A DNA stretch of 64,000 nucleotides from Escherichia coli (GTDB lineage Bacteria; Pseudomonadota; Gammaproteobacteria; Enterobacterales; Enterobacteriaceae): assembly GCF_009931435.1 (NCBI RefSeq), contig NZ_CP043414.1, one strand, 5' to 3'. The translations under genes and the position numbers were made by a program. The first letter of the stretch is position 1. Every line of letters begins with the position of its first letter. The notes beneath the pieces are model-generated. The model was not told the origin of the DNA. It made no database searches and worked only from the letters and a program-made list of their open reading frames with translations. Below, piece after piece: positions 11,594-48,506 of this stretch.

Positions 11594-12244
11594 ATGAATA
11601 TCCGTCAATCATTACATGACCGAATCTATGCAGAATACCCTCAACAGGCTAAAGATATATTACTGTATTTCCCCACTTATGAAATTATGCCATCGACCAT
11701 AAAAATGGTTATGATTAATGAGGTGGTAGCTATAACACCGCAAGAAGATTTTTATACACCAGAGTCTGGTTATTTTACGACTGTCGCCCGACAGTTAGCG
11801 CTGGCTGGATTATCGGCAAGTAGTGGCGAAGTCTTACTCAACCATGGTATCTACCTGACCTCCGCACTGAAACTACCTAAAACACAGATCACAGCCACAC
11901 CCGCGGAGATCATTCTCTGGTCACCTATTGTAGAATGGGAGCTCGAACTCTTTGCCAATATAAAAGTTATTTTCGTTGGCGGCGATATCGCGCGAAAATG
12001 CCTTAACATCATCGCGAAAAAGCAAACACGTAAACATGCCATCCCTTCAACTCCGACGTACAAACTGATGAATAGCGAATTAGTCTGGAAAGGAATAAGC
12101 ATACTTCCTGGATATATTCTTACCGGAAAAAACCTGCTCATTGAAAAGTCAAAAATCGAAATGAATGTCGAGCAATTAAGAAAAGGAATTGCGATTTATC
12201 GCAATAGTAACAGTAACCATACGAATAATTCAGTTCATGAATAA
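11594..12244 (+). CDS. Hypothetical protein, low GC; possible uracil-DNA-glycosylase-superfamily fold
   Basis: 216-aa ORF in AT-rich DNA. Four short motifs occur in the order typical of UDG-like folds (VMINEVVAITPQED; GIYLTSALKLP; KVIFVGGDIARK; IPSTPTY). The match is weak and based on pattern only. Confidence 0.4.
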   Translation: MNIRQSLHDRIYAEYPQQAKDILLYFPTYEIMPSTIKMVMINEVVAITPQEDFYTPESGYFTTVARQLALAGLSASSGEVLLNHGIYLTSALKLPKTQITATPAEIILWSPIVEWELELFANIKVIFVGGDIARKCLNIIAKKQTRKHAIPSTPTYKLMNSELVWKGISILPGYILTGKNLLIEKSKIEMNVEQLRKGIAIYRNSNSNHTNNSVHE

Positions 12245-12715: not shown

Positions 12716-12741
12716 GACCAGGAGCGTTTCGGCTCCTGGTC
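12716..12741. terminator. 10-bp-stem hairpin between convergent genes (putative bidirectional terminator)
   Basis: GACCAGGAGC-gtttcg-GCTCCTGGTC perfect inverted repeat located 17 bp beyond the stop of the UvrD-like gene and between convergent ORFs; flanking T-runs are short. Confidence 0.4.
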
Positions 12742-12757
12742 TGTTTCGGACATATTA

Positions 12758-14872
12758 TTAATCAGCCACTAATAGCGGACTAGGGATACCAGATGATGAA
12801 ACAAACAGCCCTTTTACGGCACGGGTTGCAGCCACATGCAGTAACGCGCGCTCATTAAATAATGCATCACGCTGTTCAACGGGATCATCGGATGCTAATG
12901 CTTTTATTTCCGGCACAACGCCTTCGTTAATCCCCACCAGGAACACATACTGGAACTCAAGCCCTTTAATACGGTGCATCGTTGCAACTCGCACGCCTGG
13001 GCGTGCATCGCTGTCACCGCTATCATTGCCTAAATTAAATGTCTCAATTCCGGCGTCATTGAGTGCTGATGCGTAGCGGTCACAAGCATGTTTAGTACGC
13101 GCAGTAATGCAGATATCCTGAGAACGAACCTGATTCGCCAGCAATGCCTGAATTTGCTTGACGAGTGTTGCAGCCTCTTCTTTGAAATCTGCCGCATGCG
13201 TAATCATGGGCTTTTCCCCGTGCAGTAATGACAAATAATCATTACTGGTATCCGCTTCGCCATCGAGGTTATCAACCTTCACACCAGTTAACAGCCCAAC
13301 AGCAAATTGACGCGTCTCTTCTGTGGTCCGATAGTTAATCTTCAATTTTTTACTGCGACGACCACGGACGTTAATACCACACTGACCAAGAACGACCTTA
13401 TTGCGATAAATACGCTGATGCCCATCCCCGACAATAAACAGATCGTTGGGCGACTCGGGAACCAGGCTGCGAATAAGAGTAAATGCCGGGGCACCGATAT
13501 CTTGAGCTTCATCGACGACAATACTGCTATAAGGTAGTTGGACCTGCTTTTCTTTAAACAGAACAATAGCCTCATGCATGGCATCGCCCATTTCGCGCAG
13601 TTTGGCACGCGCCATTTGTGCTCTGAATTCTTCGAAAACTGGCCAGATTTTCGCCCGTTGAATACGGGATAACGCTGTACCACGTCCAACCCGGCTGACT
13701 TTGAGGTATTCCTCCCGGGTGTAAACCGCATTTGGCTGGACAACGCGTTGCCACTCTTCAGCATAGAAATTGTCAGGTAGCCCCAGTTCGGCAGGTGCCT
13801 GCTGCAAGGCATAGTTCCAGCATTTACGTCGCCCTTCATCGCTGTCGTATACCACGCGGAAATCATAACCGTGGCGTTTTAGTTGGTCGCTCATCCAGGC
13901 ATCAATGTTAACGACGTCAATACGCGCCATCTCTTCTCGCGTACACAACCGCTGGAGATTAGCGCGAATATCTGCCGCCAGGTTACGCGTAAAGGTCGTG
14001 AAAAGTACCTTCTTACCGGGTTTATCTACCAGACGCTGAGATAACCACCGCGCACGGTGCATTGCAACAACCGTTTTCCCTGTACCTGCACCGCCCAGTA
14101 CTCGTACCGGACCATTAGCGGGCGACTCCACCAGTTTTCGCTGGCTCGGGTGCAGAAATACACGCCATTTTTCTAAAGGCGCATTAAGCATCTGCAATAG
14201 TTCCTGTTCATTTTCAACGACATGGAAGCGACGTTTACTTCGTTCAATCGCCTCCATAAAGTCGTTGGTATCAACAGGCTCATCACGATGATCGTTAAAC
14301 TCTTCCAGCACTTCCTGGTAATCCAGCCCTTCTGCCAGCCAGTGCAGAGGTTCCCAGGCTTCTGCTGGCATTATGCTTTCAAGTTGATTAAGCCCGGCTT
14401 CATCGGTAAGCGCCATCACCTGATCAATAAAGACAGGCGGCACACCCAGGGCCAGAATCTGTTCCGCGCTGTAAGCTGCGAAGAGTTTCGGTTTATCAAC
14501 CACCGTTTCCGCTGCCGGTTTGATATAGCTAATATCAATGACCTGAATCGCGCCAGTAACCGGGTGAATCGAACAATCATGCCGCCGCGCCCAGTCATAT
14601 GCTTCGTCGTGTTTATCCACCCACATCAGCATATACAGAGCACCCTGTTCAGGTTTCAGAACAATGCCGCGATAAGTTTGATCGATTCGCACCGAATGGA
14701 CATTTTTACTGCGCGCATCGTGGATCTTTTCATAGTTAAGTCCATTACTGGTCGGGTCCTGACGGAATTTGGAGATGAATTCCTGCACCTTTTTTTGCTG
14801 TGCTTTTGGGATCCGCGCGAATGCGCCCAGAAAACCATCAGAAAGTGCCACCTTGGGCGTTTGCACCGTCAT
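12758..14872 (-). CDS. UvrD/Rep-like superfamily-1 helicase with an extra N-terminal domain of about 200 aa (last gene of the DISARM-like operon)
   Basis: SF1 helicase motifs in order: Walker A GGAGTGKTVVAMHRA, VVDEAQDIG (motif II), FIVGDGHQRIY (motif III), KINYRTTEE (motif IV), ATMHRIKGLEFQYVFLV (motifs V/VI). The N-terminal region (...NVHSVRIDQTYRGIVL...) is not helicase-like. Its start overlaps the stop of the upstream giant gene by 4 bp (ATGA-type coupling). Confidence 0.7.
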   Translation of the reverse strand: MTVQTPKVALSDGFLGAFARIPKAQQKKVQEFISKFRQDPTSNGLNYEKIHDARSKNVHSVRIDQTYRGIVLKPEQGALYMLMWVDKHDEAYDWARRHDCSIHPVTGAIQVIDISYIKPAAETVVDKPKLFAAYSAEQILALGVPPVFIDQVMALTDEAGLNQLESIMPAEAWEPLHWLAEGLDYQEVLEEFNDHRDEPVDTNDFMEAIERSKRRFHVVENEQELLQMLNAPLEKWRVFLHPSQRKLVESPANGPVRVLGGAGTGKTVVAMHRARWLSQRLVDKPGKKVLFTTFTRNLAADIRANLQRLCTREEMARIDVVNIDAWMSDQLKRHGYDFRVVYDSDEGRRKCWNYALQQAPAELGLPDNFYAEEWQRVVQPNAVYTREEYLKVSRVGRGTALSRIQRAKIWPVFEEFRAQMARAKLREMGDAMHEAIVLFKEKQVQLPYSSIVVDEAQDIGAPAFTLIRSLVPESPNDLFIVGDGHQRIYRNKVVLGQCGINVRGRRSKKLKINYRTTEETRQFAVGLLTGVKVDNLDGEADTSNDYLSLLHGEKPMITHAADFKEEAATLVKQIQALLANQVRSQDICITARTKHACDRYASALNDAGIETFNLGNDSGDSDARPGVRVATMHRIKGLEFQYVFLVGINEGVVPEIKALASDDPVEQRDALFNERALLHVAATRAVKGLFVSSSGIPSPLLVAD

Positions 14873-17800
14873 TTGTCACCTCCGGACAGATGTTGCAATG
14901 TATTTTCGTCAATTGGCCCGAATGCAACGTGCCAACCCCTGGTTGTGAATAATGGAATAAATTCTTGATTATCAATAATCAATGCCCATTTTTGTGATGG
15001 CCAGGCGAGATCGGCTTCCGCAATAATTTCACCTTCATCATTTTGCAATTCGTAGCCGAGAGTCGGCGCAGAGAGAGAATGAGACTGAAGCAACGCGATC
15101 TCTTCAGCGCTTAATAAGCCAAACTCAATAATCTCAGCCCAACTTTCATCAGTCTCTGGTACTGCCTCTGGCGTTGCCGTAACTTTAACGTCAACGCTTT
15201 CCTGCGGTAAATGTACGGCTTTACGGCTGGTAAAGGTCATATCCGGCAGGAACTGTAACAGGTTTACCAGTCGCCAGAAGCCATTGAGTCCCGCTTCATA
15301 ACCGTCATCCTGCGTATAGCGATCGTCAAAACAGATATGCAAACGCAGCCAGCTGCGCATTTGTGCGACACTGGTCGTCGGTTTAATGGCTTGTTGTGGC
15401 AACACCGAAGCCAGCTCAATAAATTGCTGCGATGAGTTACAGCTATCGAGTAAACCACCAAAGACAAACGGTTCGTCTGGCAAAAGCTCTGCTAGCCGCC
15501 AGTCTGGCGCGTTTTCCTGCATTTCATAGGCATACTTTTGTTTCGTTCCCGCGTCCTGTGACTTCTTCACATCCAACCACACCCAGGCATGTGCAGCAGC
15601 CATTTTCTGCCATAACTGCGTTCTTCCTCCCGGCTCGGCGAGATAATCCAGCAGCAGTGCAAAACTGTTGCGTTCCCGGAACGACGCTTCAAGGGCCGCA
15701 AAGTTGGTATCGTGAAACAGGTTATAAAACTTAGGCTGTTTCATATCCGGGTTATGCCCAAGCCCCAGGACATCCTGAACATGTTTAAGCCCAGGCTCTT
15801 TGAGATCGGCCCACGTGACTGTCCACACCCAGAAATTACCGCTATCCCGAATCGCCTGGCGTTTTTGCACATCCTCTGCGACGCTATTTTTGTGAAACGC
15901 AAAGCCATCAAGGAAAATAGCTACCGGTTTAATGGCATCAGACTGCATAAGCGGATATAGCACGTAATCCGGGCGACAAGGGATCCCCACAGCCTCTTTA
16001 GCGCCTAAATCCACCTGAGCTTTAAGATGCCAGCTCATCATCGGTTCGCTGCGGGTGTTAATAATCCACCCAGCGCCCTGATGCGCGTAACTGCGACTGA
16101 CAATCAGGTTTTTATTTTCTTGCAGGCAGCTAATAAACCGTTTTTCCAGCTCACTGCCCATCATGGCTTCGAGGGAAATGTTTTTGATGGAATCAATTAC
16201 CCGTATCGAATCTCTTGCCTGCAAAATTTTCGCCAGCAAGAGACGCGCCTGATCGCGGGAGACATACTTCATGCGCCCACGGTCACGGTAAGCGTAAACG
16301 CAACGATAACAACCATCTTTATGCGTATCATGGTTGCAACTGCATTCCACTATCGCCTGATAGGCCAGTTCAAGTAATTTCAGCAAATTGTCGGGAGTGC
16401 GCATCAGCTCTTTAAGAGAACCAGTCCCCCCCGGGACGGTATCGTAAATCACCAGATACTGCCGCCAGGATTCGCCTTCATTTTCCGGCTCGCGGTACAC
16501 AACGCCTTTCAGGTGATCGACATTCCCCTTGAAGTAATGTTTAAGGCCGAGCTGGATCGCCGCCCCAAGAGAAGCCTCCACGACACGGTCATTACTGTAA
16601 CTGCTTACCGGGAGCAGAATTCGCAACGCTTCTGACTCCAGCTGGCGATAGAGATAGAGATAATCTTCGAACTTCGCCTTTTCCGGTTCCGTGCGATATT
16701 TGCAGCTCAAATCATGACGTGGTTCATGATCGCGAGGACGCTGTACCATGCCGCACCCCAGGCAAACTTTAAACCCGGTTCGCTTCTTCGCTTCTCCGGC
16801 AATCATCAACTCATTGGCATCATCCGCCATTTTGCCGAAGTTGATATCCCGCAGGGTGACTTTGCTTAAAAATTCAAAACCAAACGGAACTTCGCCTTCC
16901 TCAATCGCGTATGCCGCCGATACATCTTCTTTTTCGAAACTAACCAATAGCTGACGCTGGAAGAAAGCAGGTTCACGGCTGTCGCTCTCGTCGCTGATCT
17001 GGCTATCACGTGCGCTGGCGCGGGCATACACCTGGCGAAGTTTCAGCAGCGTGGTTTTTTGTCCGGCGTCGGCCCACCCCGGTGTGCCACATTTCGGGCA
17101 ATATTTATGCTGGTCGCCCGTCTGGTCGATATTTTCGCTGTAGTTACAGTGGCTACAGATACGCCAGTTCTCCGGCTCAGAGACCTTCAGGTCTATCTGC
17201 TCAATTTCAACTTTATGCCCACCGGCATAGAAATTATTCAGCGGAGCCAGCTCAGCCAGCGCCGTTGATGCCGGGCGTTCATATTCGAAAGTGGTGTTTT
17301 GATATTCACGCGCTTCCCCGCCTTCTTTACGCCGCCAGAGCACAGAACGTAACGTAATACCGGCTTCCGGGAAGGCGTAGTTAGGCAGCAGACCTTCATC
17401 CGTGAGGAAATTCAGCGTCTGCTTATTGTTGATTTGATTGACTAGCGCCATCAGCGCCTGCCGTTCTGAAGTTAACTCGCGCATATCGCTGTCAAAGTTT
17501 TGATCGCGCGGCGCGTTCTCCAGCTTATCGATACTGCGCTTGAGTTTATCGATGCGTGAACGCAGAGATTTGCGATCTTCCACCAGCAGTTTTAACGCCT
17601 CTTCGATACGCTGCACCAGAGAGCGTTGTCCTGGCGCGCCCTGAAGATAAGACAACAACTGTTGGCGAGTTTCTGCGGCAAGATCGGGGAAGATCGCCGT
17701 AAATTGTGCAGCAATCTCCGCATGATGCTGTTCGATATATCTCAGTAAGTTATACGGAAAACCCGATTTACGCCCGAACTCCAGCTCATCCAGCATCTGT

Positions 17801-20800
17801 TTGACGTTTTTACAGATAGCGGATTCTGGTACACCGGTTTTCACCCAGTTATCCATACAAAAAGCTGCCAGCTGGCGTTCGAGAATAGCCGTTGCATTGA
17901 GGAAGACGCCAGGAGCCTGCACCTGGCCCTGCATCATCTCCAGCGGTTCTTCAAAGAAAAACTGATCGTGCGGGTTCCCTTCTGCCACGGTAATGTTTAA
18001 CGCGTTACCATCTTTACGACCGGCGCGACCAATACGCTGCAAGTAGTTGGCCTGAGCAGGTGGGACAGAACAGAGTAAAACGGTGGAAAGATCCCCAACG
18101 TCAATACCCATCTCCAGCGTCGGTGTTGCCGACAACAGGTTGATATTCCACGGTTGGTTGCCACGGTAGAACGATTTTTCGGTGGCTTCGCGATCTTCAC
18201 GGCTAAGCAGCCCCGTGTGTTCTGCGCCCTGCACGCGCGCGATGTCCATGTTCTCCCAACGCCAGGTCGCCATATTGTCGACTTCCTGGTAACGACCTTC
18301 ACAACGTAAAGAGAGACAAGGCGCATTACGCCACTGCCAGCCTTGATCGGCCGGAGCCCGGACAACCTCACGGCAACATGAGCAATTAAGCTGAACGACG
18401 TCACGGCTCACCACCAGCGCCGAAGGCACCAGTCCCCAGGCTTCACGCCCTTTGGTGTCAAAATCTTTTACTACTCCGGCTATTTTCAACGCCGTAAACA
18501 GGCGTCGTAACACTGTTTCCGCAACGCTACTGATAAACAGATTATTGCCGTTACTCAGCGTGCGATTGATCCAATGCTGATACCAACTGGGGTTAGACTT
18601 CGCGCCAATCAGGCGATGGAAACCATTAATTTTTTCAAACGACGCATAAGCCGGTTTACGCGTTTTCGGACCGATAGAAGGCATATAGCGCGATGTACGC
18701 TCTTTTTGCGTCATCATAAAGGTCGTGCCATCACGGCGATAACTTTCGAACGCCGGATGCATAACGGCCCCGGCCTGGCGTTGATACCAGATAACCCCCA
18801 GCGCCAGGTGCGCTACCTGCTCGACGCTCACACCGGACATCTCATCACCCAGCTCTTCACAAAGCTGTTGATGCAGGGCGGTAATTGCCGGATTAAAGCG
18901 TTCTTTATCCACTCCGGCAACGGCATAACCGGTGGCTTCCAGCGTACGTCCGATACGCGCGCGCAGGGTAAATTCGCTGTACACCTCCCAGTCGAGGCGC
19001 AGGGAAACCAGCTCCGGCAGATCGGAGTTCTCCGCCAGTTTGCCTTCATTTTTCAGTGTCTGATAATCATTCAGCCACTGCATATTTGGTGCGATGAAGT
19101 TCGCTGCAAAATGAGCATCGTCCGGTGAACGTTCACGCGTTTGTTGGCAAACACGCGCCGCGAACGCATCCAGCGGTAATGTCTCTTTTTCGCCAAGAAC
19201 ACTGGCGATTTGCCCACGAATCATCAGCGGCCAGGTTCGGGCAGTAAAAAAGCTGGCACGATGCGCGGCGTCTTGTACCGAGTCAGAAAACGTAATCAGC
19301 TTTTTATGTTCGTTGAACTGGCTGCCATAAAGCTGGTGAATCATCACCGCCGACAAACTGGCAGCCCGTGACCCCAGAATCGAAATCCCCTGTTTGCTGT
19401 TGCAGTACGGGCATTCATTAGCAAACTCCAGCTCGTCCTTACGCTCTTTGAGCATATCCGGGATCAGTACCTGCAACAGTTCCGTATGACCGCAATGTCC
19501 ACACTGGACGCTGGACTGTCGGTTCAGTTTCAGACAGGTAGGGCACAGTTTCTGGTGTGCGCCACTGACCGCTTTTTCGTTGTTATCCGGGAAAGCAAGG
19601 ACGATGGAGCGCCCTTTTTCAAAGAACTGGCGATAAATGCCGTCGAGGTCTGTTTCCAGCTGAACGCTTTGCCCATGACGCAGGCTGGCCCAGCCAGTTG
19701 CGTGGCAGTCACGGCAGTGGATAACCGGCAAATAGTGTTCGCGGTCTTCCACCGCCACATCATCGGCAAACACCAGTCTCGGCGTTTTCGCCACGCTGGC
19801 GACCAGACGACGCATCTCACGAAGCCACAACTGGGAGCGCAGTTGCACAAACGGCAGCACCGGGCGCGCTTTCTTCGCCTGGAGACGTTTTTGCCGATCG
19901 TGTTCCATTTCCGGTACTTCGAGACGTGCCTGTGCGATCAGCGCCAGAATGCTTTGCAGCACGCGTCGGGCATGGTCGGCGCTTTCTGCCAGCATAACCT
20001 GGAGATTTTCCAGACACTCTCGTTCAGAGAGGATCCCGCCTTGCAGATCATGGAGTAAGACATGCATCACGCTGTGGCGGCGTAACAGTGACCCCAGCGC
20101 AATACGCTTTTCACGCCCGTCGTCGCTCTCCAGATCGTCCGGGAGTTGCAAGTCGCTGTCGGGGAACCACAAAGGGATTTGCCCGTTAAGATACGCTACC
20201 GGGGTAGCGTAACTCTGCGGGTCCAGGGCCGAAGCGACCTCCTGCCCCGGATACTGACTGTACGCAATGGCGTAATCCTGCAAGTACTCCGCTGCCGTGT
20301 AGCGATCTTCGCGAATAACGGCGTCATCGGTAAACGGCTGGTCAAAGATTGTTTTTGCGTAATCGAGCAGTTGCCCCAGTTCGTCGCCGACGGTCGCTGA
20401 TGTCCCGACACAGGCGAATCGTTGGTTATCCACACCTATGTGATGCTTCAGACGTCGCACCAGACAGGCCAGATCCGACCCTTGCGCGCCATCAAACGTA
20501 TGCAATTCATCCACGACCAGGTAGCGCAATGAACCGGGCTGGTTGTAACGCCAGAGCGGCTGATCGCCAGGGCGCATCAGCAGGTAGTCGAGCATTTTGT
20601 AGTTGGTCAACAGGATGTCCGGCGGGCTTTCGCGCAGCGTGTGCTTGCAGGTAATGACCTTTTCTGCCGACATTTTTTTGCTGGGTTCGATTTCGCTGTC
20701 GCCGACAAACAGGCCGACGGTCACCTTGCCATGCAGTTGTGGATCGCTGGCGATGGTTTTGGCGAAACGGCTGGCCTGATCGGTTGCCAGGGCGTTCATC

Positions 20801-21210
20801 GGGTAGATGATAATCGCTTTAACCCCGGCTTGTGACGCGCCCGCGCAGTGGTTGAGCAGCGGGAACATAAAACATTCTGTTTTACCGGAGCCGGTACCGG
20901 TAGCGACCAGTGTCGGCTGTGGCGCGTCGCTTCCCAGACGCTGAAATGCCCGGGCCTGATGCGCGTGCGGCGGGAACGGCAGCGTCAGATTAGGGAAAAA
21001 ATTCAGCGGTAAGTCACTTTTACGAAACGGCAACTGGGCGGAAAGGTATGGTCCTTTCAGCAGCGTTTCCGGCTGGGCCAGAAATTGCTCCAGCATTGAG
21101 ACATTATCGTTATTCTCACCGTTAAACAGCGGGCTGTTTAGCGGGAACGCCGCCCGTAAAAAGGCGGCAACGCTGTCGGCGACCTGCCGACTGACAACGG
21201 ACGGCAACAT
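14869..21210 (-). CDS. Giant 2113-aa fusion protein: N-terminal DEAH-box SF2 helicase, DUF1998-type zinc ribbon, and a C-terminal restriction-endonuclease-like (Vsr/DUF559-like) module (DrmA+DrmB-like or DruE-like)
   Basis: Helicase motifs GTGSGKTECFMFPLL (I), VVDELHTFDGAQG (II), VGTSATV (III), QRIGRAGRKDG (VI). Cys clusters CSHCNYSE...YCPKCG and ECSCNHDTHKDGCYRCVYAY are typical of DUF1998. C-terminal segment RPDYVLYP...VAIFLDGFAFH...D..KRQAIRDSGNFWVW resembles a PD-(D/E)xK Vsr-like nuclease. Start overlaps the methyltransferase stop. Confidence 0.7.
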   Translation of the reverse strand: MLPSVVSRQVADSVAAFLRAAFPLNSPLFNGENNDNVSMLEQFLAQPETLLKGPYLSAQLPFRKSDLPLNFFPNLTLPFPPHAHQARAFQRLGSDAPQPTLVATGTGSGKTECFMFPLLNHCAGASQAGVKAIIIYPMNALATDQASRFAKTIASDPQLHGKVTVGLFVGDSEIEPSKKMSAEKVITCKHTLRESPPDILLTNYKMLDYLLMRPGDQPLWRYNQPGSLRYLVVDELHTFDGAQGSDLACLVRRLKHHIGVDNQRFACVGTSATVGDELGQLLDYAKTIFDQPFTDDAVIREDRYTAAEYLQDYAIAYSQYPGQEVASALDPQSYATPVAYLNGQIPLWFPDSDLQLPDDLESDDGREKRIALGSLLRRHSVMHVLLHDLQGGILSERECLENLQVMLAESADHARRVLQSILALIAQARLEVPEMEHDRQKRLQAKKARPVLPFVQLRSQLWLREMRRLVASVAKTPRLVFADDVAVEDREHYLPVIHCRDCHATGWASLRHGQSVQLETDLDGIYRQFFEKGRSIVLAFPDNNEKAVSGAHQKLCPTCLKLNRQSSVQCGHCGHTELLQVLIPDMLKERKDELEFANECPYCNSKQGISILGSRAASLSAVMIHQLYGSQFNEHKKLITFSDSVQDAAHRASFFTARTWPLMIRGQIASVLGEKETLPLDAFAARVCQQTRERSPDDAHFAANFIAPNMQWLNDYQTLKNEGKLAENSDLPELVSLRLDWEVYSEFTLRARIGRTLEATGYAVAGVDKERFNPAITALHQQLCEELGDEMSGVSVEQVAHLALGVIWYQRQAGAVMHPAFESYRRDGTTFMMTQKERTSRYMPSIGPKTRKPAYASFEKINGFHRLIGAKSNPSWYQHWINRTLSNGNNLFISSVAETVLRRLFTALKIAGVVKDFDTKGREAWGLVPSALVVSRDVVQLNCSCCREVVRAPADQGWQWRNAPCLSLRCEGRYQEVDNMATWRWENMDIARVQGAEHTGLLSREDREATEKSFYRGNQPWNINLLSATPTLEMGIDVGDLSTVLLCSVPPAQANYLQRIGRAGRKDGNALNITVAEGNPHDQFFFEEPLEMMQGQVQAPGVFLNATAILERQLAAFCMDNWVKTGVPESAICKNVKQMLDELEFGRKSGFPYNLLRYIEQHHAEIAAQFTAIFPDLAAETRQQLLSYLQGAPGQRSLVQRIEEALKLLVEDRKSLRSRIDKLKRSIDKLENAPRDQNFDSDMRELTSERQALMALVNQINNKQTLNFLTDEGLLPNYAFPEAGITLRSVLWRRKEGGEAREYQNTTFEYERPASTALAELAPLNNFYAGGHKVEIEQIDLKVSEPENWRICSHCNYSENIDQTGDQHKYCPKCGTPGWADAGQKTTLLKLRQVYARASARDSQISDESDSREPAFFQRQLLVSFEKEDVSAAYAIEEGEVPFGFEFLSKVTLRDINFGKMADDANELMIAGEAKKRTGFKVCLGCGMVQRPRDHEPRHDLSCKYRTEPEKAKFEDYLYLYRQLESEALRILLPVSSYSNDRVVEASLGAAIQLGLKHYFKGNVDHLKGVVYREPENEGESWRQYLVIYDTVPGGTGSLKELMRTPDNLLKLLELAYQAIVECSCNHDTHKDGCYRCVYAYRDRGRMKYVSRDQARLLLAKILQARDSIRVIDSIKNISLEAMMGSELEKRFISCLQENKNLIVSRSYAHQGAGWIINTRSEPMMSWHLKAQVDLGAKEAVGIPCRPDYVLYPLMQSDAIKPVAIFLDGFAFHKNSVAEDVQKRQAIRDSGNFWVWTVTWADLKEPGLKHVQDVLGLGHNPDMKQPKFYNLFHDTNFAALEASFRERNSFALLLDYLAEPGGRTQLWQKMAAAHAWVWLDVKKSQDAGTKQKYAYEMQENAPDWRLAELLPDEPFVFGGLLDSCNSSQQFIELASVLPQQAIKPTTSVAQMRSWLRLHICFDDRYTQDDGYEAGLNGFWRLVNLLQFLPDMTFTSRKAVHLPQESVDVKVTATPEAVPETDESWAEIIEFGLLSAEEIALLQSHSLSAPTLGYELQNDEGEIIAEADLAWPSQKWALIIDNQEFIPLFTTRGWHVAFGPIDENTLQHLSGGDK

Positions 21211-24200
21211 CAGGCGCTCTCCTTATCTTGTGCAAAGAACGCCCAGGCCACTTTGTAGTCGTCTTCGCGATCCGGCTTGATAAACGGTGCCTGCCAGGTG
21301 ACGGTACGGCGCTCGCCTTCGTCGCTGCGGGTATAGTCATCAAAGGTGACGCTGACGGTACCGGTTTGCAAATGTTTGACATCATCCCAACCGATGGCTT
21401 GATCGGTGCAGTCACCGCCGGTCCACTCCGGGCTGTCGACGTTAAAGACAAAGCCGTTTTTCAGGTCAGCTTTACGCGCGGTGCGAGGCAAGCCAACGCC
21501 CACCAACCCTTTGCTTGGGGTAAAGATGATGCGGCCGTTTTGGTCGTACCAGGTGTCCGCTTCGTACTGACGCATCACCGGGAACTGTACACGGTAAATG
21601 GTAAGCAGCTCTTCGAGGGTTAACCCCAGCGCCTGTGCCACCAGAACGTCGATTTCCACCAGCGCCTGACGACGACTGTAGTCGGAGCGTAAGGCACAGT
21701 TACGCTGCCACTCTGGGGTCAGATTGGCGAAGAAATCTTGTGGGAGCTGCGGGAGATCGCGGCTCCAGCGTTGGGTATTGAAGTCTGGGGTGTAGCAGGA
21801 TTGCCAAAGGCCAGCATATACATCATTTACAGAATTTAATGATAATACTAAGCAGTATAATAATGCCTTTTGTCTCGGATTGAATAATACGTATGAGAAA
21901 CCATCAAGCATCTGATGTAAGTTTGCCTTGCCAGTAGATTTACAAATAAAATCAAAAGGTAAAGAAAAACACATACCTGAATGTTCGAGTAACTGATTCT
22001 GTGAGCTATAGCAGTAAGAACGTACTGCGTTCATGTGACTTATTTCTGGCGGATAAATAGCACTAATTAGTGTACGTTCCCCCGATTGAGCCAACATGGC
22101 TCTGATAGCTAAGCGATAATAATCTGTTACCTTCTTCGGTTCATCTTCAGCCAGTTCAGTCCATGTAACGCATGGAGTACGTTTGGCATACTCCTGTGCA
22201 TCACAGGCTGGAATATAGTTAGTGCGCGGCAAATAGTCGTCGGGCAGAGTTAGCAAGTCTAGGTTATCGTATGCTTTATTCGTGTCACAAACCGCTCTAG
22301 GCGTATTGTAGAAAGGATTGCCAACAAAAAAATGAGGGCCAGACAAAACCCATTGTGATGCTTCTTCCGGGAACTGTGTATGTCGCTCAATTGTACCATC
22401 GCTTTGCTGATTAGTTTCATGCCACATTTCTAGAGAATAATATTGCCCCTGCAAATCACCTAATCGCCTAGGTTGTTTCGCAAACTTTTCAAGTACTGTA
22501 ACTAATTGTGTAGCATGCAACGCAGGAAGACGGGCTTCCTGGGCAGGAGTTCCGACAACATCATAAAGACGCGCAAAAAGACCCAACTGTTTTAAATTTA
22601 TAGGCACGACTCGATCGAAATGTCCCTGGAAATTCCATTTAACTTTTACTTTGCCATCGATTTCAGTTTCTTCTTTTATCCCCGGGACAATGCCTTCCCC
22701 TTTATGTTCAAAACACGCGTCAATAGTTTGAGGAATAAATAAATTTGCTATATTTGAGAATGCCACTATCTGAGAATAGGGGCCATATACATTGATGCTA
22801 AATCTAGTGTGATTATCTACTTCAGCAAATATTTTAACTTCATTGGCAAATTGAAAATGCGCCCTCAACCTCGGGTACACTGCCGCACGCAACTGCCCAC
22901 CTTTCGGGTCATCATAAATCCCTTCCGGGTGCAGGAAGCCTGCCACGCCTTTCTCTGCCCCTAAGCGCCATGCCTGCGGCAGGAAGCATTTATACAAGTT
23001 GGTCTGCACCCCGCGCAGTACCGGGTAGTTTTGCTGCGCATTGAGGAAGTTTTGCATCCCTTCACAGCCTTCATACTCGCTGCGCCAGGCCGCTTCCAGC
23101 GCTGGGATCTGGTTAAAGGTATCAACACGCAACGTTGCCAGCTTCGATGCACTCAGCTTACGCAGCACAAATTCCGGCTCGTAATCACCCAGCACGCCCG
23201 CTTCCTGCCATTCCACTTTTAGCCACGGCGGGTTTCCGAGCATCAGGTCAAAACCGCCGCGCTCGGCAAACAAGTCGCAGAACTCCAGATCCCAGTGGAA
23301 GAAACGGTGCTGCTTTCTCAGGGCATCGACAATCGCCAGACGCGGCAAATGGCGGAACAGCACATCGGTTTTCAGACGACCAGCAACGGAAAACAGCGAA
23401 GACTCTTCTCGCAGCAGGCCTTCTTCGGCAAACAGATCGCCAGTGGTGTGATCCGCAACTTCAGTGACTTTTTCCGTGATTACAATCCCGTCGAGCAGGG
23501 TTTCAATCTCAAACAACCAGGTACCGCGATCCGGTAGCTCATCAGCTTTGTCGATCGGCCAGAACCACAGCGCGCACCAGTAGTCCATCACCCAACGCAG
23601 CTTCTGGTAGGCGCTGTTATCTTCAAGACGACCGCTAAAGGTTTCATCTTTACTGCTCAGCGAAGAACGTGTCTGCTCGCTGTTTTCTGCCGGCCACACC
23701 GGGTAGCTGTCGGCGGTTTTCAGACGTTCTGCTTTAAGTTGCTGGCGATAGGTGTTCCACAGTGCTTCCACCTTTTCGCTGATACGCTGCACATCAGCAA
23801 TCTCATGCCCGGCAAAGCTTTTAATAAACTCTTTGCGCCAGCTGTCCAGCGCTTTGAAGTCATCCGGATAACGCTGCTTAACAGTTTTATCGCTGTAATT
23901 AGCCATACCGCCGTCGGGCAGCAGGAAGTGGAAAATCTGCGTCTCTTCACGCGGCGTGTTCATCGCCAGTTCGACCGGCTCGCTGTTAAGCCAGCTCGGA
24001 TCTTTGACTTTTTTGTAGGTCAGTTCGCTCTTGTTGAACACCTGACGGCGCGCGCCCACCAGCGAGTTACCGCAGTGCAGCTGGTAACCAAACCACGGTA
24101 CAAAGGCATCGCCACTGATGGCGTTCAGCCACAGTGACACTTCCGCCAGCTCCACCGCCACCGGGTTTAAGTCCACGCCGAAAACGTTGTTGTCGGCAAT

Positions 24201-26144
24201 GTACATTTTCACCCGCTGTAACTCCTGGGTGTAACGATCCTGCGGAATACGTCGACCTTCCGCCTGCTGTTTGTGGAACAGATACGCTTCCGCCAGCTGG
24301 TTGATGGCTTCGTTAAGGAACGCCGCGCTGCCCATCGCCGGTTCGCACACGGTGAGGTTTAAGATGGCATCAGCTTTGGCGTGCGGATCGCTAATGGGAT
24401 CAATCTGCTCCTTAAACAACTCTTTCAGGGCATATTTAACCAGTGAGCGGGTCAGCACTTCCGGGGTGTAATAAGAGGCAGATTTCTCACGGTCGCGTCC
24501 GGCCATACGGTAGATAAAACTGCCTTTGCGGTGAATGCGCAGGCTGCCGTCTTTCTCGTAGACCTTCTCGTCTTCGTGGTATTTGCCAATCTCATCCTTA
24601 CTGACGAAGTAACCCGTCTCCAGCTCGTTAAACTCTTCTCCGGCTTTCTTCACCTCGTAGAGATCTTCGCTGGCGAAGAATCCGCGATAGGAGAGCAGTG
24701 CCTCATACACCGCACCCAACTGGTTGATACCCAACTGGCGATAAGAAATACGTCCGCGGCGGTTAAAGCGCTCTTTGCCCGGGCGGCTTAACGACATCGC
24801 CTGGATAATCTGTTGCAGGGTTTCGTTACGGAATACCACGCGGTTAAGAATGCGCGTGTTGTTGGCATCAAACAGATGACTTTCCAGACGCGGGACGCTG
24901 AACTGATGACTATGGATGGTGATCCGGTCGCCGCTCTCCAGGTCACTCTGCATTTTCACGCCGCCGTTGTAGCCTTCGCGCACCAGTTTAAACAGCATAT
25001 TCAGGCTGTCGTGGAAGTAGCGCCCGTTGCGATCTTCTTCGCTGGTCAGCGGGATCATCTCCAGATCGCGCAACGTTTCCAGGCTGTAACCTTGCAGATA
25101 GGTTTTGGCGGTCATCGGCGCATAACCCAGCTCCGGGCGCGCTTCAATGTAGAACAGGAACAGCAGGCGGTACATGTAACGCAGACATTCGCGGCTCAGT
25201 TCATCCGGGTCCACCGCACGGTTACCGGTATAGTTTGCCAGGCCACGGTCGATCAGGTAATGCATCGCTTCGTTGCCCAGCAGCTCAATGCTTTCGCGCA
25301 GGGCATATTTCAGATCTTCCGACACGCCAAACGCATGTTTGTGCGAATTGTCATCCAGCGAGTCAAGATAAGGTGCCCCACTGCCCGGCAGCAGAGAATC
25401 TTTATGTAGCAACACCGCCGTCGCTTTCAGCGTATCCGTTTCACGACGACTTAAAATCTCTTCAAAATCAAAACGCAGCAGACGGTTTTGCGCCCACTTA
25501 GTACGGTCCAGCAGCAATAGCTGACGGTTACCGAGCAATAGCACAAAACGCGGAGGTTCATTTTGGGTGAAGACCGCCGTAGAGAGCAGATCTTGCCAGC
25601 TGCGATATTCACCGTTGGCTTTTTTGCGCAGGCTGTCGCGCTTATGTTTGTCGGTATCCGCCGGGAATTGCGCGGTCAGTAAAGAGAGCGCCAGCGGATC
25701 CAGCGTTCCCTCTTCCTGATCGTGTGCTTCGACAATCCACAGCCACGGGCTACCGTCAGTGCTGTTGTAACGCGCCAGTACCGGCAGCGGTGTATCGTCA
25801 TCCAGCATTTGGATCTGCGGCGTAATTTCGTAACCCAGCGCCTTTAACAATGGCTGCCAGCGATTACGTTGATCGGCCAGACGTTGCGGGATCTGACGCT
25901 GTTTTTCGTGCTCGGCAAGTTTGCGGAAAAACTCAGTCGCCAGACTGTTAAACTGGTTCCACGGAGCGCGGTATCCCGGCTCTACGTCTTTGCCCTGTTC
26001 ACGAGCGGCACGCTCCGCTTCACGCGCTGCATTTTCCTGGGCTATCCAGGGTTCCAGCACATCGCGGATATCACTGGTGAAAACCTCACCCAAATAGTGG
26101 TTAGAGTAAAATTCGTTTTCGTTATTAATACCGACCAGCGCCAT
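21210..26144 (-). CDS. Very large (1644 aa) gamma-class N6-adenine DNA methyltransferase (DrmMI/PglX-like)
   Basis: AdoMet-binding motif I (...LNLTVCEPAMGSAAFLNEAINQ) followed later by the catalytic motif IV LMLGNPPWLKVEW (NPPW), which is the gamma-class order. It has long N- and C-terminal extensions and sits 2 bp downstream of the SNF2 gene. Confidence 0.75.
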   Translation of the reverse strand: MALVGINNENEFYSNHYLGEVFTSDIRDVLEPWIAQENAAREAERAAREQGKDVEPGYRAPWNQFNSLATEFFRKLAEHEKQRQIPQRLADQRNRWQPLLKALGYEITPQIQMLDDDTPLPVLARYNSTDGSPWLWIVEAHDQEEGTLDPLALSLLTAQFPADTDKHKRDSLRKKANGEYRSWQDLLSTAVFTQNEPPRFVLLLGNRQLLLLDRTKWAQNRLLRFDFEEILSRRETDTLKATAVLLHKDSLLPGSGAPYLDSLDDNSHKHAFGVSEDLKYALRESIELLGNEAMHYLIDRGLANYTGNRAVDPDELSRECLRYMYRLLFLFYIEARPELGYAPMTAKTYLQGYSLETLRDLEMIPLTSEEDRNGRYFHDSLNMLFKLVREGYNGGVKMQSDLESGDRITIHSHQFSVPRLESHLFDANNTRILNRVVFRNETLQQIIQAMSLSRPGKERFNRRGRISYRQLGINQLGAVYEALLSYRGFFASEDLYEVKKAGEEFNELETGYFVSKDEIGKYHEDEKVYEKDGSLRIHRKGSFIYRMAGRDREKSASYYTPEVLTRSLVKYALKELFKEQIDPISDPHAKADAILNLTVCEPAMGSAAFLNEAINQLAEAYLFHKQQAEGRRIPQDRYTQELQRVKMYIADNNVFGVDLNPVAVELAEVSLWLNAISGDAFVPWFGYQLHCGNSLVGARRQVFNKSELTYKKVKDPSWLNSEPVELAMNTPREETQIFHFLLPDGGMANYSDKTVKQRYPDDFKALDSWRKEFIKSFAGHEIADVQRISEKVEALWNTYRQQLKAERLKTADSYPVWPAENSEQTRSSLSSKDETFSGRLEDNSAYQKLRWVMDYWCALWFWPIDKADELPDRGTWLFEIETLLDGIVITEKVTEVADHTTGDLFAEEGLLREESSLFSVAGRLKTDVLFRHLPRLAIVDALRKQHRFFHWDLEFCDLFAERGGFDLMLGNPPWLKVEWQEAGVLGDYEPEFVLRKLSASKLATLRVDTFNQIPALEAAWRSEYEGCEGMQNFLNAQQNYPVLRGVQTNLYKCFLPQAWRLGAEKGVAGFLHPEGIYDDPKGGQLRAAVYPRLRAHFQFANEVKIFAEVDNHTRFSINVYGPYSQIVAFSNIANLFIPQTIDACFEHKGEGIVPGIKEETEIDGKVKVKWNFQGHFDRVVPINLKQLGLFARLYDVVGTPAQEARLPALHATQLVTVLEKFAKQPRRLGDLQGQYYSLEMWHETNQQSDGTIERHTQFPEEASQWVLSGPHFFVGNPFYNTPRAVCDTNKAYDNLDLLTLPDDYLPRTNYIPACDAQEYAKRTPCVTWTELAEDEPKKVTDYYRLAIRAMLAQSGERTLISAIYPPEISHMNAVRSYCYSSQNQLLEHSGMCFSLPFDFICKSTGKANLHQMLDGFSYVLFNPRQKALLYCLVLSLNSVNDVYAGLWQSCYTPDFNTQRWSRDLPQLPQDFFANLTPEWQRNCALRSDYSRRQALVEIDVLVAQALGLTLEELLTIYRVQFPVMRQYEADTWYDQNGRIIFTPSKGLVGVGLPRTARKADLKNGFVFNVDSPEWTGGDCTDQAIGWDDVKHLQTGTVSVTFDDYTRSDEGERRTVTWQAPFIKPDREDDYKVAWAFFAQDKESA

Positions 26145-26146
26145 GA

Positions 26147-29005
26147 TTAACCCTCCGCTCCGGTGATAACAGCAATTACCTGAATGTAGGGTTCTTTTTC
26201 AGTCGTCATGGTGTCCTCAATCCATTCAATATAGCTGTCAAAATTGTGTTCGATTTCGCGTTGTCTCTGCTCTTTACGGCTCTGCTTAACTGACAATTGC
26301 TGTTTGTTATCGGCAAAATCCAGCTCAAGTTGGCTCAACTGCCGCCCACGCAAAACGTCCAGCTTTTGCAGATGCTCATTCAGTTGCTGGTTAATGTGCG
26401 TTTCAAACGCATTCCGATCATGGATGAATACCTCCCGGGCATGAGCAATAGCCGCTTCCAGTAAATCCTGCTGGCGCTGGTGATTACGATCTTTACCGCC
26501 GCTGTTAGTCAGCTTGTTACTCAACTGCGGATGACGTTGTAAAAACTCAGCAAATGGCTGACTGCCGATTAGCGATTCACGGTTAAAGCTCACCACTATC
26601 CACGGGTTCACCATCGGATGTGATTTACGGTTCGGGAATAACCCGGAAAGAATGAAGTGATCTTCATCGGGTTCAAGCAGGTATGGCAGACGGATAACCG
26701 GTGCCTGATGACGACCAAAAGCCGAAGAGATTTTATCGTCCAGCCACTGCACTACCGGGTTGATTTGCCAGAGATACTGCACATCGGGCCAGGCATGTTG
26801 CTCACCGCGAGCGCGTGCAATCGCGTCGGTGATGACGGTTTTATCCTGACTTAAATAGAGCTGCCAGTTCTCCGGGGCGATTTCAGGCGGTAGCTGGTTG
26901 AAGCGGCGGCGTAACTCCTCCGGTGCCACCAGCGACAAGGTATTATCAGGCAAGGTTTCATACTGGATAGTTTGACCACTGGCTTTCAGGTAACCCAATG
27001 CTCTTTCGCAGTACGCCTGTTCGCTGGCAAACAAGCTGGTGTCTGTTTCGGTAACCATTGAGGCATCGCTGGAAACCGCACTGCATATTTCGCCAAACAG
27101 ATCATGTTCGGCGCTTTCCGAGACGTTGCTGTTCAGCAGTTGATCAAACAGGCTGGCACCATCATCCTGCATCATGAACTCTGCAACCTGCTCTTCTTCC
27201 TCTTCCTGGGTAAATTTGCCGGTAAACTCCGAACTGTCCCCAATGTTCTTCTGCGCCTGTTCGTCTTTGTTGATCAACACTTCCAGTACGCGCATATCGC
27301 CATTGATCTGCGGTTCGCTGGCCTCGGTAAGCAGATAGCGGATTTGAGGCTGATGTTTTTGCCCATAGCGGTCAATACGCCCGTTACGTTGCTGGAATAC
27401 CATCAACGACCACGGAATATCAAAGTGAATCATTTTGTGGCTAAGGTGATGCAGGTTGATCCCTTCAGATGCCACATCCGAACAAACCAGAAGACGCAAC
27501 GGCGACTGCGTTTTACCAAAGGCTTCTACGGTTTCCATCAACACCGTATCGCCCTGATCGCCGCGCAGCGTGGCGATCTGATCATCTTTCAATTTCAGAT
27601 CCGCTCGCAGTTGCTGTTCGAGGAACTCCAGCGTTTTAATGCTTTCGGTGAAGATCACCAGGCGATCTTCCGTGTTATTGGCTTTCCAGGCGAGGTCTTT
27701 TCGGATGGTGTCGAGCAGCAACTGGTATTTGCTAAACTGGCTGGCATCAATGTTATTCAGCGCCAACAGCAATGACTCCAGTTCGTTGATCTGGCTCTGG
27801 CTATTATGATCTTTACGGCTCTCAAGACGCTTCAGACGATTAGCCACTACGCTGGCACACGCCATCGGGCTGGAAAATAGCGCTTTTTCGAGGGTTATCT
27901 TGAACAGACGACCTTTGTTAGACTGGGCCTGTTCATCGTCATCATCACGGAACTGACTCTCAACCAGGCGACGGTATGCTTCTTCTTCGGCACCGGATGC
28001 CAGGCGAGTCAGTTTGACAATATTGCGCTCGGGGAACTCGCCAGACATCTGATCTTTCACGTCTTTTTTGAAGCGACGGACAACCAGATTTTTATCGGCA
28101 AAGTCGGCGTATTCATACTCTTTCGGGTTGGCGATCGCCGTCGGGTCAAGCATGTTCATCAGGCTGGCAAAACTTTCAGCTTTACCATCATGCGGCGTTG
28201 CTGAAAGCATAATCAGCGTATCGCTGCGCCCGGCGAGCAGTTTTGCCAGTTTACTGCGTAACGAACTGGTTCCACGTTCTGCGACGTTATGGGCCTCATC
28301 AATGACAATAATATCCCACCAGGCATTTTCCAGATGGTGACGATATTCAATATCTTGTTTCAGCGTATCGATGGAGATAATGGTCTTGTCAAAATAGTGG
28401 AACGGGTTGTGGTTGGTAGGGATGCGGTTACGCACTTTTTGTAAACCAGCAGAATCCAGGCGGGTCAATGGGATCGCAAAACGGCTCCAGAACTCCTTCT
28501 GGAATTGTGTCAGCATCGATTTAACCGCCAGAACCAGAATACGTTTTCCGCGCCCACGACGGATCAGTTCCGAAACCAGAATACCCGCTTCCAGCGTTTT
28601 ACCCAGACCGACAGCGTCGGCAATGAGTATCCGCTGACGCGGTTGTGCCAGCGCCATCCGCGTAGGATCGAGCTGAAACGGCATGGAATCCATCGCCGCC
28701 AGATGTCCAAAATGGACTTTACTGTCTGTCGGTACGCGTTGGCGTAACTGACTTTCAATATACAACTGTGCCGCCTGATAATTGGCGGATTCATCTTCCA
28801 CCAAATGCGTTTTTGCGGGATCAAGGATCTCTACTTTTTGTTCCAGTTTGGTCAGAAATAACCCTTCTTTACCGCGCACCAGCTCTGAAATACCATCGCA
28901 GGTCAGCAAATACCCACCATCACCACTGTCATCCGCCCGGCGAATACGCCATTCGGCATCACGAATAACCACCCGCATACCAGGTGCATAATTTTGCTTA
29001 TTCAT
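26147..29005 (-). CDS. SNF2/RAD54-family helicase (DrmD-like), first gene of the DISARM-like operon
   Basis: ADAVGLGKTLEAG (motif I), IVIDEAHNV (DEAH), LMLSATPHDG (motif III), C-terminal QQRNGRIDRYGQK (motif VI). Preceded by a 223-bp intergenic region containing inverted repeats. Confidence 0.75.
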   Translation of the reverse strand: MNKQNYAPGMRVVIRDAEWRIRRADDSGDGGYLLTCDGISELVRGKEGLFLTKLEQKVEILDPAKTHLVEDESANYQAAQLYIESQLRQRVPTDSKVHFGHLAAMDSMPFQLDPTRMALAQPRQRILIADAVGLGKTLEAGILVSELIRRGRGKRILVLAVKSMLTQFQKEFWSRFAIPLTRLDSAGLQKVRNRIPTNHNPFHYFDKTIISIDTLKQDIEYRHHLENAWWDIIVIDEAHNVAERGTSSLRSKLAKLLAGRSDTLIMLSATPHDGKAESFASLMNMLDPTAIANPKEYEYADFADKNLVVRRFKKDVKDQMSGEFPERNIVKLTRLASGAEEEAYRRLVESQFRDDDDEQAQSNKGRLFKITLEKALFSSPMACASVVANRLKRLESRKDHNSQSQINELESLLLALNNIDASQFSKYQLLLDTIRKDLAWKANNTEDRLVIFTESIKTLEFLEQQLRADLKLKDDQIATLRGDQGDTVLMETVEAFGKTQSPLRLLVCSDVASEGINLHHLSHKMIHFDIPWSLMVFQQRNGRIDRYGQKHQPQIRYLLTEASEPQINGDMRVLEVLINKDEQAQKNIGDSSEFTGKFTQEEEEEQVAEFMMQDDGASLFDQLLNSNVSESAEHDLFGEICSAVSSDASMVTETDTSLFASEQAYCERALGYLKASGQTIQYETLPDNTLSLVAPEELRRRFNQLPPEIAPENWQLYLSQDKTVITDAIARARGEQHAWPDVQYLWQINPVVQWLDDKISSAFGRHQAPVIRLPYLLEPDEDHFILSGLFPNRKSHPMVNPWIVVSFNRESLIGSQPFAEFLQRHPQLSNKLTNSGGKDRNHQRQQDLLEAAIAHAREVFIHDRNAFETHINQQLNEHLQKLDVLRGRQLSQLELDFADNKQQLSVKQSRKEQRQREIEHNFDSYIEWIEDTMTTEKEPYIQVIAVITGAEG

Positions 29006-38500: not shown

Positions 38501-38902
38501 ACAAGCCAGTGTATGCAGATAACCCGAAGCTTGCCCCAGGTTTCTTATCTTTCTTTTCCAGTAGCGAATGCCATCATTAACCAGCTTCTGTCGATGAACA
38601 TACGGAACTTTCCAGTCAATAGAATCTAAAATTGTGTCCCATTTAGGGTGTCCGACCGTATGAGTCCGGCGGATAAACTCTGCGGCATATATGCTAAATA
38701 GAACATCGCTATAGGAAATGAATATCGTTCTTGGATAACTACGAGGGGCATATGTACGCAGTAGTTCTGCCAAACTTTCGTACTCTGTATCAGTACAACG
38801 GTAAGCATATAACGCCCGTCCATCAGCTCCGGATAATGAACGGCGACTAAAAAACATGTTAAGCCATTGCAAAAGTGGGTTAACTGGAGTTTTCACAAGC
38901 AA
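35543..38902 (-). CDS. druH: 1119-aa protein of unknown function, DruH-like partner of DruE
   Basis: Large low-GC ORF with no recognisable catalytic motif, translationally coupled to the DruE-like gene. The pairing and size agree with the two-gene Druantia type III layout as I recall it; assignment is by context only. Confidence 0.5.
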   Translation of the reverse strand: MLVKTPVNPLLQWLNMFFSRRSLSGADGRALYAYRCTDTEYESLAELLRTYAPRSYPRTIFISYSDVLFSIYAAEFIRRTHTVGHPKWDTILDSIDWKVPYVHRQKLVNDGIRYWKRKIRNLGQASGYLHTLACEGGLPIRMIENESGYLITYFRRIYQALRGQASQYPAAKIAQELGDTIPVTMQNELVYEIAGEFCETLCRLLSEHPPQSSDPVSALRKLSPDWHLQLPLVLPEANAAEIVRRLLSQSSEIRSASSLQVERIWVDVDDSWYCDARFRFPATMRTEQLTSLFECHIQPEQTRLIISGKWRNGGARLAMLSRYEQQDWRVELLPIAMQKLSGADAMAEISLSLHEGPILLGHTIPKGGYELTEELPWVFEAMNESESQLKLVGMGSVSSRLNALFISLPKNSHLDISGEGEFDIPRLLKNSERSLTKISGVFSVVLHDGAVCTIRTQQLYDSAIEYYIKSTEVELVKSDYPVHRAWPKIGWKKDLQYGIVPEKELFWRSIRSGNNAWYSVASEMPKGQIEVRRIVNDEVLFSGKVVVLPADFDINIIPESAQQGIIMLSGITDTRIDKYSNNEKVTLKSDYSQNECAIYYNSSQMLENTVDLRVSWKDGSNLKLLLPKPVSGGRFVTNDGSVHFDGVASIAHLHGIDAELLTISCAGRGYLNIELLDENPVAEKFRYLHADLPLLSGRNDKLQQISLYENYNLLNAMLACAWNSNSTLCVDFYSDRFGKDKATLNIKRYDGSFIEHDQGLLVDIKNSVVFPANRIDELVVDAISLKDPGLHKSLLKKDEFAYDLSALNVQDSPWLIVGKLDGTARIAPVIKWMLPVLQTNDLLLNALCEADPEQRKKNFNELIFEIDNNPLQNYCCLLTEYIKKYKMNNGLSLLDLDLFRGISSNYRVVVQLLISSCLSGDSDTIYDIQEELPFSWGWIPVSIWKDVFQKCWTYLEKQINDKTLALHILQPFIAFMNHRAHIDRRLAPIANMLLTYSESLPTGCDVLPTVSREQFNEAKQMLLRNPDSFGRISIFPKELWSSAITPELKSVFNKLWIEDKYHSRLEKRFNLMLVAALLTQKDNNLIHQLSALFEFHYQQAPQQLGVIYQYYFEQAGVCH

Positions 38903-48421: not shown

Positions 48422-48506
48422 TGGTGCCGAAGGCCGGACTCGAACCGGCACGTATTTCTACGGTTGATTTTGAATCAACTGCGTCTACCGATTTCGCCAC
48501 TTCGGC
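48422..48506 (-). tRNA. leuX: tRNA-Leu (anticodon CAA), leuX
   Basis: The minus-strand sequence GCCGAAGTGGCGAAATCGGTAGACGCAGTTGATTCAAAATCAACCGTAGAAATACGTGCCGGTTCGAGTCCGGCCTTCGGCACCA forms the acceptor stem, carries a CAA anticodon in a TTCAAAA loop, has a long variable arm and ends in CCA. Confidence 0.95.

Follow-up and report, generated by a model that had tools for sequence, protein, structure and literature searches.

Introduction

ARMADA type II, a four-gene anti-phage system (ArmA-D), was named by Bell et al. (bioRxiv, September 2025; PMC12458937), who cloned the ARMADA system of Escherichia coli NCTC 12900 and found protection against HK022 to be lost when any one of the four is deleted. 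Regarding ArmD, the K266A mutation abolished protection against this phage, and D454N weakened the defence with a partial loss. According to the same work, ARMADA defence is direct and non-abortive, infected ARMADA cells being intact and metabolically unperturbed in propidium iodide and resazurin assays, with protection persisting at high multiplicity of infection (MOI); ARMADA operons form a separate YprA clade, the C-terminus of ArmC bears a Vsr-type domain that is the nuclease of the system, and type II has as its hallmark a fourth gene, for a UvrD-family helicase. In enterohaemorrhagic E. coli (EHEC), a delta-armD mutant was sensitised to Bas18, to a lesser degree than the delta-armA, -armB and -armC mutants (10.1101/2025.09.22.677730). 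No paper on ArmD later than these was found in the literature. Phage resistance in EHEC O157:H7 and in other E. coli owes a major part to ARMADA II, which shows synergy with Druantia III, and the components of the system therefore matter for phage therapy. Here we analyze armD in a stretch of 64,000 nucleotides of an E. coli genome (contig NZ_CP043414.1, assembly GCF_009931435.1; hereafter, the window), and in particular the RelE-like domain at the N-terminus of its product. This is a toxin fold with an apparently intact catalytic set and without an antitoxin, in a system that neither kills nor arrests its host, and an understanding of its role would reveal how such a fold comes to be domesticated for a direct-acting immune complex.

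Results and Discussion

The Gene and Its Operon

An uninterrupted open reading frame (ORF) of 704 codons spans exactly positions 12758-14872 of the window on the minus strand, a strand left unstated in the original prediction for this interval, and encodes a protein of 704 amino acids; on the plus strand the same interval is full of stops. This gene is very probably armD, the fourth, type-defining gene of E. coli ARMADA type II, with the domain architecture described below. It is so identified because the gene arrangement is the published one, because the Walker A lysine and the Walker B aspartate of the window protein fall at K266 and D454, as published, and because 694 of 697 aligned residues (99%; 3 substitutions) are identical in an O157-lineage copy, through which, rather than through the validated protein WP_000218177.1 itself, the identity to the validated ArmD was gauged. 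The length of the protein and its place after ArmA-ArmB-ArmC, beside Druantia III and Zorya II, also match those of the published ArmD, and nothing material differs. The gene, its domain architecture and its need for defence are already published, and we add no discovery to them. A protein identical to that of the window is recorded on 445 contigs under the name "ATP-dependent helicase", and of 5426 complete genomes, 532 carry armD with 95-100% identity.

As shown in Table 1, the operon runs co-directionally from 29005 to 12758 in the order SNF2 helicase, PglX-like methyltransferase, YprA helicase and UvrD-family helicase, with the genes abutting or overlapping. The last two are translationally coupled, the ATG of armD overlapping the TGA of armC as ATGA (4-nt overlap), with a GGAGG ribosome-binding site inside the end of armC. 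As a hairpin lies past the stop codon and the next gene is convergent, armD is the terminal gene of this defence operon, in agreement with the original prediction. The hairpin, missed by a terminator scan that demands a T-run, is a possible terminator or mRNA stabilizer. Two ORFs overlapping armD, at 13342-13866 (minus strand) and 14222-14968 (plus strand), were discarded as spurious, since armD is strongly supported. The experiments first suggested for this gene, its deletion and a Walker A mutation, have both been published and both abolish HK022 defence (PMC12458937). By the published genetics, HK022 defence depends on ArmD and on its Walker A lysine K266, and the protection given by ARMADA is direct and leaves the cell alive. 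A gene dispensable for every host and phage is contradicted by both published studies of armD.

The Helicase Core

Three parts make up the single ArmD polypeptide: residues 7-113 form a domain of the RelE/YoeB/YafQ fold, residues 135-232 a helical middle domain, and residues 233-704 a superfamily 1A (SF1A) helicase core. The presence of all canonical UvrD/Rep motifs, as first predicted, was confirmed: the complete superfamily 1 (SF1) set (Q, I, Ia, II, III, IV, V and VI) can be read in the sequence, and Pfam detects UvrD-helicase at residues 241-490 and UvrD_C at 509-693. By its motifs and its two-RecA-domain fold, ArmD belongs to the SF1A helicases of the UvrD/Rep/PcrA type, and its family profile matched UvrD (4e-40), PcrA (8e-38) and Rep (2e-31) among the PDB proteins. 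It is not an ortholog of these housekeeping enzymes, as its scores with the NCBIfam equivalog models were 99.6 bits for PcrA (cut-off 911), 91 for Rep (951) and 90 for UvrD (965). It differs from them by a shorter core (~470 amino acids), by the RelE-like plus helical N-terminal extension and by its location in a defence operon. The predicted model of the full-length protein reached a predicted local distance difference test (pLDDT) score of 92.3 and a predicted template modelling (pTM) score of 0.87.

The core has been compared in the literature to GajB, with which ArmD shares being a UvrD-like helicase of a defence system, and the PADLOC GajB models match ArmD at 2.7e-36. The published "GajB-like" label is nevertheless a loose one, the core being closer to UvrD/Rep than to GajB. 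In our profile and fold searches of the core, UvrD, Rep, PcrA and HelD ranked well above the solved GajB. Identification of the system as Gabija was ruled out, because the neighbours of armD are armC and a convergent gene of the uracil-DNA glycosylase family, not GajA (an ATPase-TOPRIM OLD-family nuclease), and because GajB is not the nearest of the UvrD-like helicases to ArmD.

The N-Terminal Domain Adopts a RelE-Like Fold

The region preceding the helicase is indeed non-helicase, as first predicted, although its size is ~232 residues and not about 200. Its distal part is the conserved middle domain, which holds two similar helix-LGVP/LP-helix units and gave no confident structural or Pfam match; a linker with lower pLDDT, predicted to be without secondary structure, separates it from the RelE-like domain. 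The faint resemblance to RelE/ParE toxins, noticed originally around the peptide KIHDARSKNVHSVRIDQTYRGIVL (residues 49-72 of ArmD), was borne out from several sides. No significant Pfam match was obtained with residues 1-240 of ArmD, but the weak matches found in family members belong only to families of the RelE/ParE clan, ParE_like in 15 of 37 (E<=0.1, best 1.6e-4) and Gp49 in 6 of 37. Several homologues of the N-terminus also carry the JGI label "RelE", and the published HHpred analysis of ArmD lists RelE3 (3BPQ_D) with an E-value of 0.0085, together with GajB (8IUD) at 6e-32 (PMC12458937, supplementary table). As sequence alone is insufficient proof, the fold assignment rests on structure comparison. 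The AlphaFold2 model obtained here for the domain has a pLDDT of 92.2 and a pTM of 0.87, and the RelE-type matches each span ~80-90 residues, essentially an entire toxin. The predicted RelE-like fold of residues 7-113 is solid, since these matches cover nearly the whole toxin and the Pfam matches of the family are confined to the RelE/ParE clan. By its model the domain shows the fold of the RelE/ParE superfamily, making ArmD a UvrD-family helicase fused N-terminally to a RelE-like domain.

Compared to the RelE/YoeB/YafQ/HigB/ParE toxins (BECR fold), the ArmD domain has a 590-amino acid C-terminal extension, two extra beta-strands and no antitoxin gene, and neither the PDB profile search nor a YoeB hhalign comparison gave a significant sequence-profile match to these toxins. 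Helicase fusions are unmentioned in a survey of multidomain RelE/ParE toxins (10.1101/2025.01.28.635273). In Cami1, a CARF-RelE fusion acting as ancillary effector of type III CRISPR, the sensor is a cyclic-oligoadenylate-binding CARF domain instead of a helicase, and its action causes growth arrest, whereas ARMADA is reported as non-abortive.

Conservation was measured in 69 full-length ArmD members with 34-49% identity to the query. Residues H88 and W94 are invariant in this set (100%), R62, R68 and Q110 are present in 99% of the members, and E48 and D89 in 96%. The mean pairwise identity of the RelE-like domain was 43%, compared with 42% in helicase domain 1A, 36% in 2A/2B and 15% in the linker, so by this measure the conservation of the RelE-like domain matches that of the helicase core. 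It is also basic, with a median isoelectric point (pI) of 9.3. The near-invariance of a Glu/Arg/Arg/His set, at what would be the catalytic positions of YoeB and YafQ, leads us to favor, by a small margin, an RNase that is catalytically competent rather than a dead scaffold.

No antitoxin-like ORF adjoins armD, which is preceded by armC and followed by a 513-bp spacer with short unsupported ORFs only. With no cognate antitoxin gene beside it, any activity of the N-terminal domain must be curbed in cis. The high pTM of the full-length model agrees with the RelE-like domain being docked in a fixed manner onto the remainder of the protein.

Homologues of ArmD and Their Partners

When residues 1-244 were used as query, 231 word-index matches were found, and an exhaustive HMMER scan produced 1795 clusters at 50% identity, 916 of them at E<=1e-10. 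The full-length members of these clusters are uniformly ~680-750 amino acids long and match at their N-terminus; likewise, every protein matched in AFDB50 by the N-terminal module is a "DNA 3'-5' helicase" of ~700 amino acids, and these come from many phyla. Matches of 250-400 amino acids, which could pass for free-standing RelE-plus-linker proteins, were rejected as such, as they correspond to contig-end truncations or frameshifted fragments still in ARMADA context. Frameshifts or assembly errors break two metagenomic copies (L005:10001-12149 and L006:10001-11630) into 2-3 ORFs, and split copies of this kind, not free-standing toxins, explain many "RelE-only" database entries of that size. 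Even where it is fragmented, on a contig of cyanobacterial type and in a second metagenome, armD comes after a methyltransferase and a YprA helicase, and a further armD copy stands behind a YprA helicase on a short contig.

An ArmD homologue with the E/R/R/H set intact is encoded in GCA_048261265.1 (L002:816-15783) behind a DruE-like YprA helicase, and no SNF2 helicase or methyltransferase was recognized among the genes called in the 10 kb upstream. An upstream protein of 1349 amino acids was considered as a DruH or ArmB homologue and discarded, as it has no similarity to either and no PADLOC match; downstream lie an 832-amino acid unknown protein and a HIRAN protein. This locus may represent an undescribed YprA plus RelE-UvrD variant of the system. 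Since the same synteny recurs in distant taxa, even without the canonical ARMADA genes as in this locus, the YprA helicase appears to be the constant partner of ArmD homologues.

Possible Role of the RelE-Like Domain

We propose that ArmD would be an ATP-driven motor on single-stranded DNA (ssDNA), working beside the ArmC helicase-nuclease, and that the substrate of both would be the phage DNA left unmethylated by ArmB. The N-terminal domain could be a helicase-tethered RNA-cleaving or RNA/ssDNA-binding module, and not a free-diffusing toxin. It would be held in check in cis, which would make an antitoxin gene unnecessary, and would act locally on the nucleic acid met by the motor, such as phage transcripts, primers or R-loops. 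The mechanism put forward for this domain is tentative, with chances that range from low to about even. A more specific form of it, in which the domain is an active, antitoxin-free endoribonuclease of the RelE/YoeB type gated in cis by the UvrD-like motor, and in which other helicases of YprA/DruE-like type, outside canonical ARMADA II, may use the same module, as suggested by the variant locus above, seems to us rather unlikely. If it were true, a DNA-methylation-based, non-abortive system would gain a second, RNA-directed activity, exerted only at helicase-engaged phage nucleic acid.

Several observations weigh against the mechanism proposed for the domain. The pairing of E48, R62 and R68 of ArmD with E46, R59 and R65 of YoeB by hhalign was not significant (E 0.12-0.31), in a register that was consistent between the E. 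coli YoeB alone (E 0.31) and an alignment of 120 YoeB sequences (E 0.12). The YoeB homologues retrieved were >82% identical, making the YoeB profile too shallow, and for both reasons the correspondence with YoeB in particular is proposed conditionally. H88 comes after the last core strand of the domain, and we take it to be at the place of H83 in YoeB, H87 in YafQ and R81 in RelE, an assumption made from its secondary-structure position and from the catalytic residues known in these toxins. When the profile of the domain (alignment A2) was compared with the PDB sequences, no RelE-family protein was retrieved, and the only matches, to Legionella Ceg14 and the RSV P protein, were insignificant. 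A stand-alone RelE-UvrD homologue in GCA_012271185.1 (L008:9840-11963), whose surroundings contain neither a YprA helicase nor an SNF2 helicase nor a methyltransferase, has K instead of E at position 48 and A instead of D86, and could be an orphan, a copy in decay or a form that works autonomously. In addition, ARMADA is non-abortive and works without the metabolic shutdown expected from a general mRNA interferase, and the published ArmD mutants hit the ATPase motifs only, none of them the RelE-like domain (PMC12458937). Experiments on ArmD toxicity or mRNA cleavage did not turn up in the papers that were searched.

Alternatively, the RelE-like domain could be catalytically inert, an exapted module on which ArmC docks or which binds nucleic acid as an accessory, with ArmD working only as an ATP-dependent helicase or DNA-end sensor like GajB in Gabija. 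We consider this a serious possibility, if somewhat short of an even chance. The Walker A mutation alone suffices to lose the defence, the system is non-abortive and no antitoxin is present; furthermore, ParE-type members of the fold are not nucleases, and the weak Pfam matches are mostly to ParE_like. The pTM of the full-length model would suggest a domain fixed against the rest of the protein, and, the stand-alone copy apart, ArmD homologues are always behind a YprA helicase, even in the non-canonical locus. What a mere scaffold would not lead one to expect is the near-invariance of E48, R62, R68, H88 and D89, polar or charged residues of the kind found in the RNase active sites of YoeB, YafQ and RelE, although the conserved basic residues could equally mean binding and not catalysis. 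At the opposite extreme, ArmD could be an abortive-infection effector whose helicase senses phage DNA and lets the RelE domain loose, so that it would arrest the infected cell as a global, ribosome-dependent mRNA interferase. The fold and the conserved residues fit such an effector, as does a basic pI typical of ribosome-binding RelE toxins, but the intact and metabolically unperturbed state of infected ARMADA cells and their protection at high MOI (PMC12458937) make it improbable, and a 704-amino acid protein with its domain fixed to a helicase may not fit the ribosomal A site.

The original prediction took the operon for DISARM, with an SF1 helicase replacing the terminal PLD nuclease DrmC as a possible effector, a reading that we now find hardly credible. 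ARMADA does share with class 1 DISARM an SNF2 helicase, an adenine methyltransferase and a DUF1998-containing helicase, ArmA and ArmB match the DrmD and DrmMI models, and the operon encodes no PLD protein. However, the best match of ArmC is DruE (4e-104) and not DrmA (4e-14), its helicase and DUF1998 parts are fused and not split into DrmA and DrmB, and the DrmD score of ArmA (349.7) stays below the NCBIfam cut-off of 610. The ARMADA operons form their own YprA clade, and as the nuclease role corresponds to the Vsr-type domain carried by ArmC itself (PMC12458937), the SF1 helicase is not a substitute for a PLD nuclease. The operon is a DISARM-related ARMADA type II, set apart from class 1 DISARM by the fused DruE-like YprA helicase, the lack of DrmC and the extra ArmD, and the SF1 helicase, thought unusual in this position, is the signature of the type.

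Features of the Island

The coordinates of armD, its domains and its surroundings are collected in Table 1.

Table 1. Features of armD and of the surrounding defence island, in window coordinates.
Feature	Position	Strand	Description
armD	12758-14872	-	704-aa RelE-like/UvrD-like helicase fusion; stop codon 12758-12760; from ORF calls
RelE-like domain	14534-14854	-	Residues 7-113; conserved E48, R62, R68, H88, D89, W94, Q110
Linker	14471-14533	-	Residues 114-134; poorly conserved, 15% mean pairwise identity
Middle domain	14177-14470	-	Residues 135-232; conserved, mostly helical; LGVP and LPxEA motifs
Helicase core	12761-14176	-	Residues 233-704; SF1A UvrD/Rep/PcrA type
Q motif			LHPSQ, residues 240-244
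Motif I (Walker A)	14072-14095	-	GAGTGKT, residues 261-267; stretch G260-T267, includes K266
Motif Ia			TFTRN, from residue 293
Motif II (Walker B)	13499-13516	-	VDEAQD, residues 453-458, includes D454
Motif III			GDGHQ, from residue 482
Motif IV			YRTT, from residue 514
Motif V			HRIKGLE, from residue 633
Motif VI			VAATRA, from residue 680
Ribosome-binding site	14879-14883	-	GGAGG, 6 nt 5' of armD ATG, within armC end; read from sequence
Hairpin	12716-12741	-	Perfect 10 bp, GACCAGGAGC-CGAAAC-GCTCCTGGTC; begins 17 nt past armD stop; no U-tract
Convergent gene	11594-12244	+	216 aa, directly 3' of armD; RefSeq: uracil-DNA glycosylase family protein
armC	14869-21210	-	2113-aa YprA/DruE-like DEAD-box helicase with DUF1998; PADLOC DruE3 4e-104, DruE1 7.5e-97, DrmA 4e-14
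armB	21210-26144	-	1644-aa PglX/type IIG-like adenine methyltransferase; PADLOC REase_MTase_IIG 4.5e-287, DrmMI 3e-57
armA	26147-29005	-	952-aa SNF2 (DrmD/BrxHII-like) helicase; PADLOC DrmD 1.4e-99; NCBIfam DISARM_DrmD 349.7 bits, cut-off 610
DruE (Druantia III)	29229-35552	-	Full-length PADLOC match
DruH (Druantia III)	35543-38902	-	Full-length PADLOC match
ZorA (Zorya II)	at 39114		Divergent
leuX, tRNA-Leu(CAA)	48422-48506	-	Sole tRNA in the window

The island is located at leuX, between this gene and the nan/fim genes, and in a matching annotated genome it adjoins nanC/nanM and fimB. The uracil-DNA glycosylase family protein encoded next to armD had no PADLOC match, and beyond its gene a frameshifted transposase remnant is present in the matching genome (L001). 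In the RefSeq (PGAP) annotation of that genome, the DruE of the island (L001:1-5656) is named "motility-regulating DEAH-box RNA helicase", which conflicts with its full-length match to DruE of Druantia III. Finally, the extreme C-terminus of ArmC (14872-15411, minus strand) resembles the C-terminus of ZorE (41484-42587, plus strand) over ~57 residues, with 40% identity and a pairwise E-value of 6e-9, and the PADLOC and NCBIfam ZorE models also match residues 2019-2096 of ArmC; a small C-terminal domain is therefore common to the two neighbouring systems.

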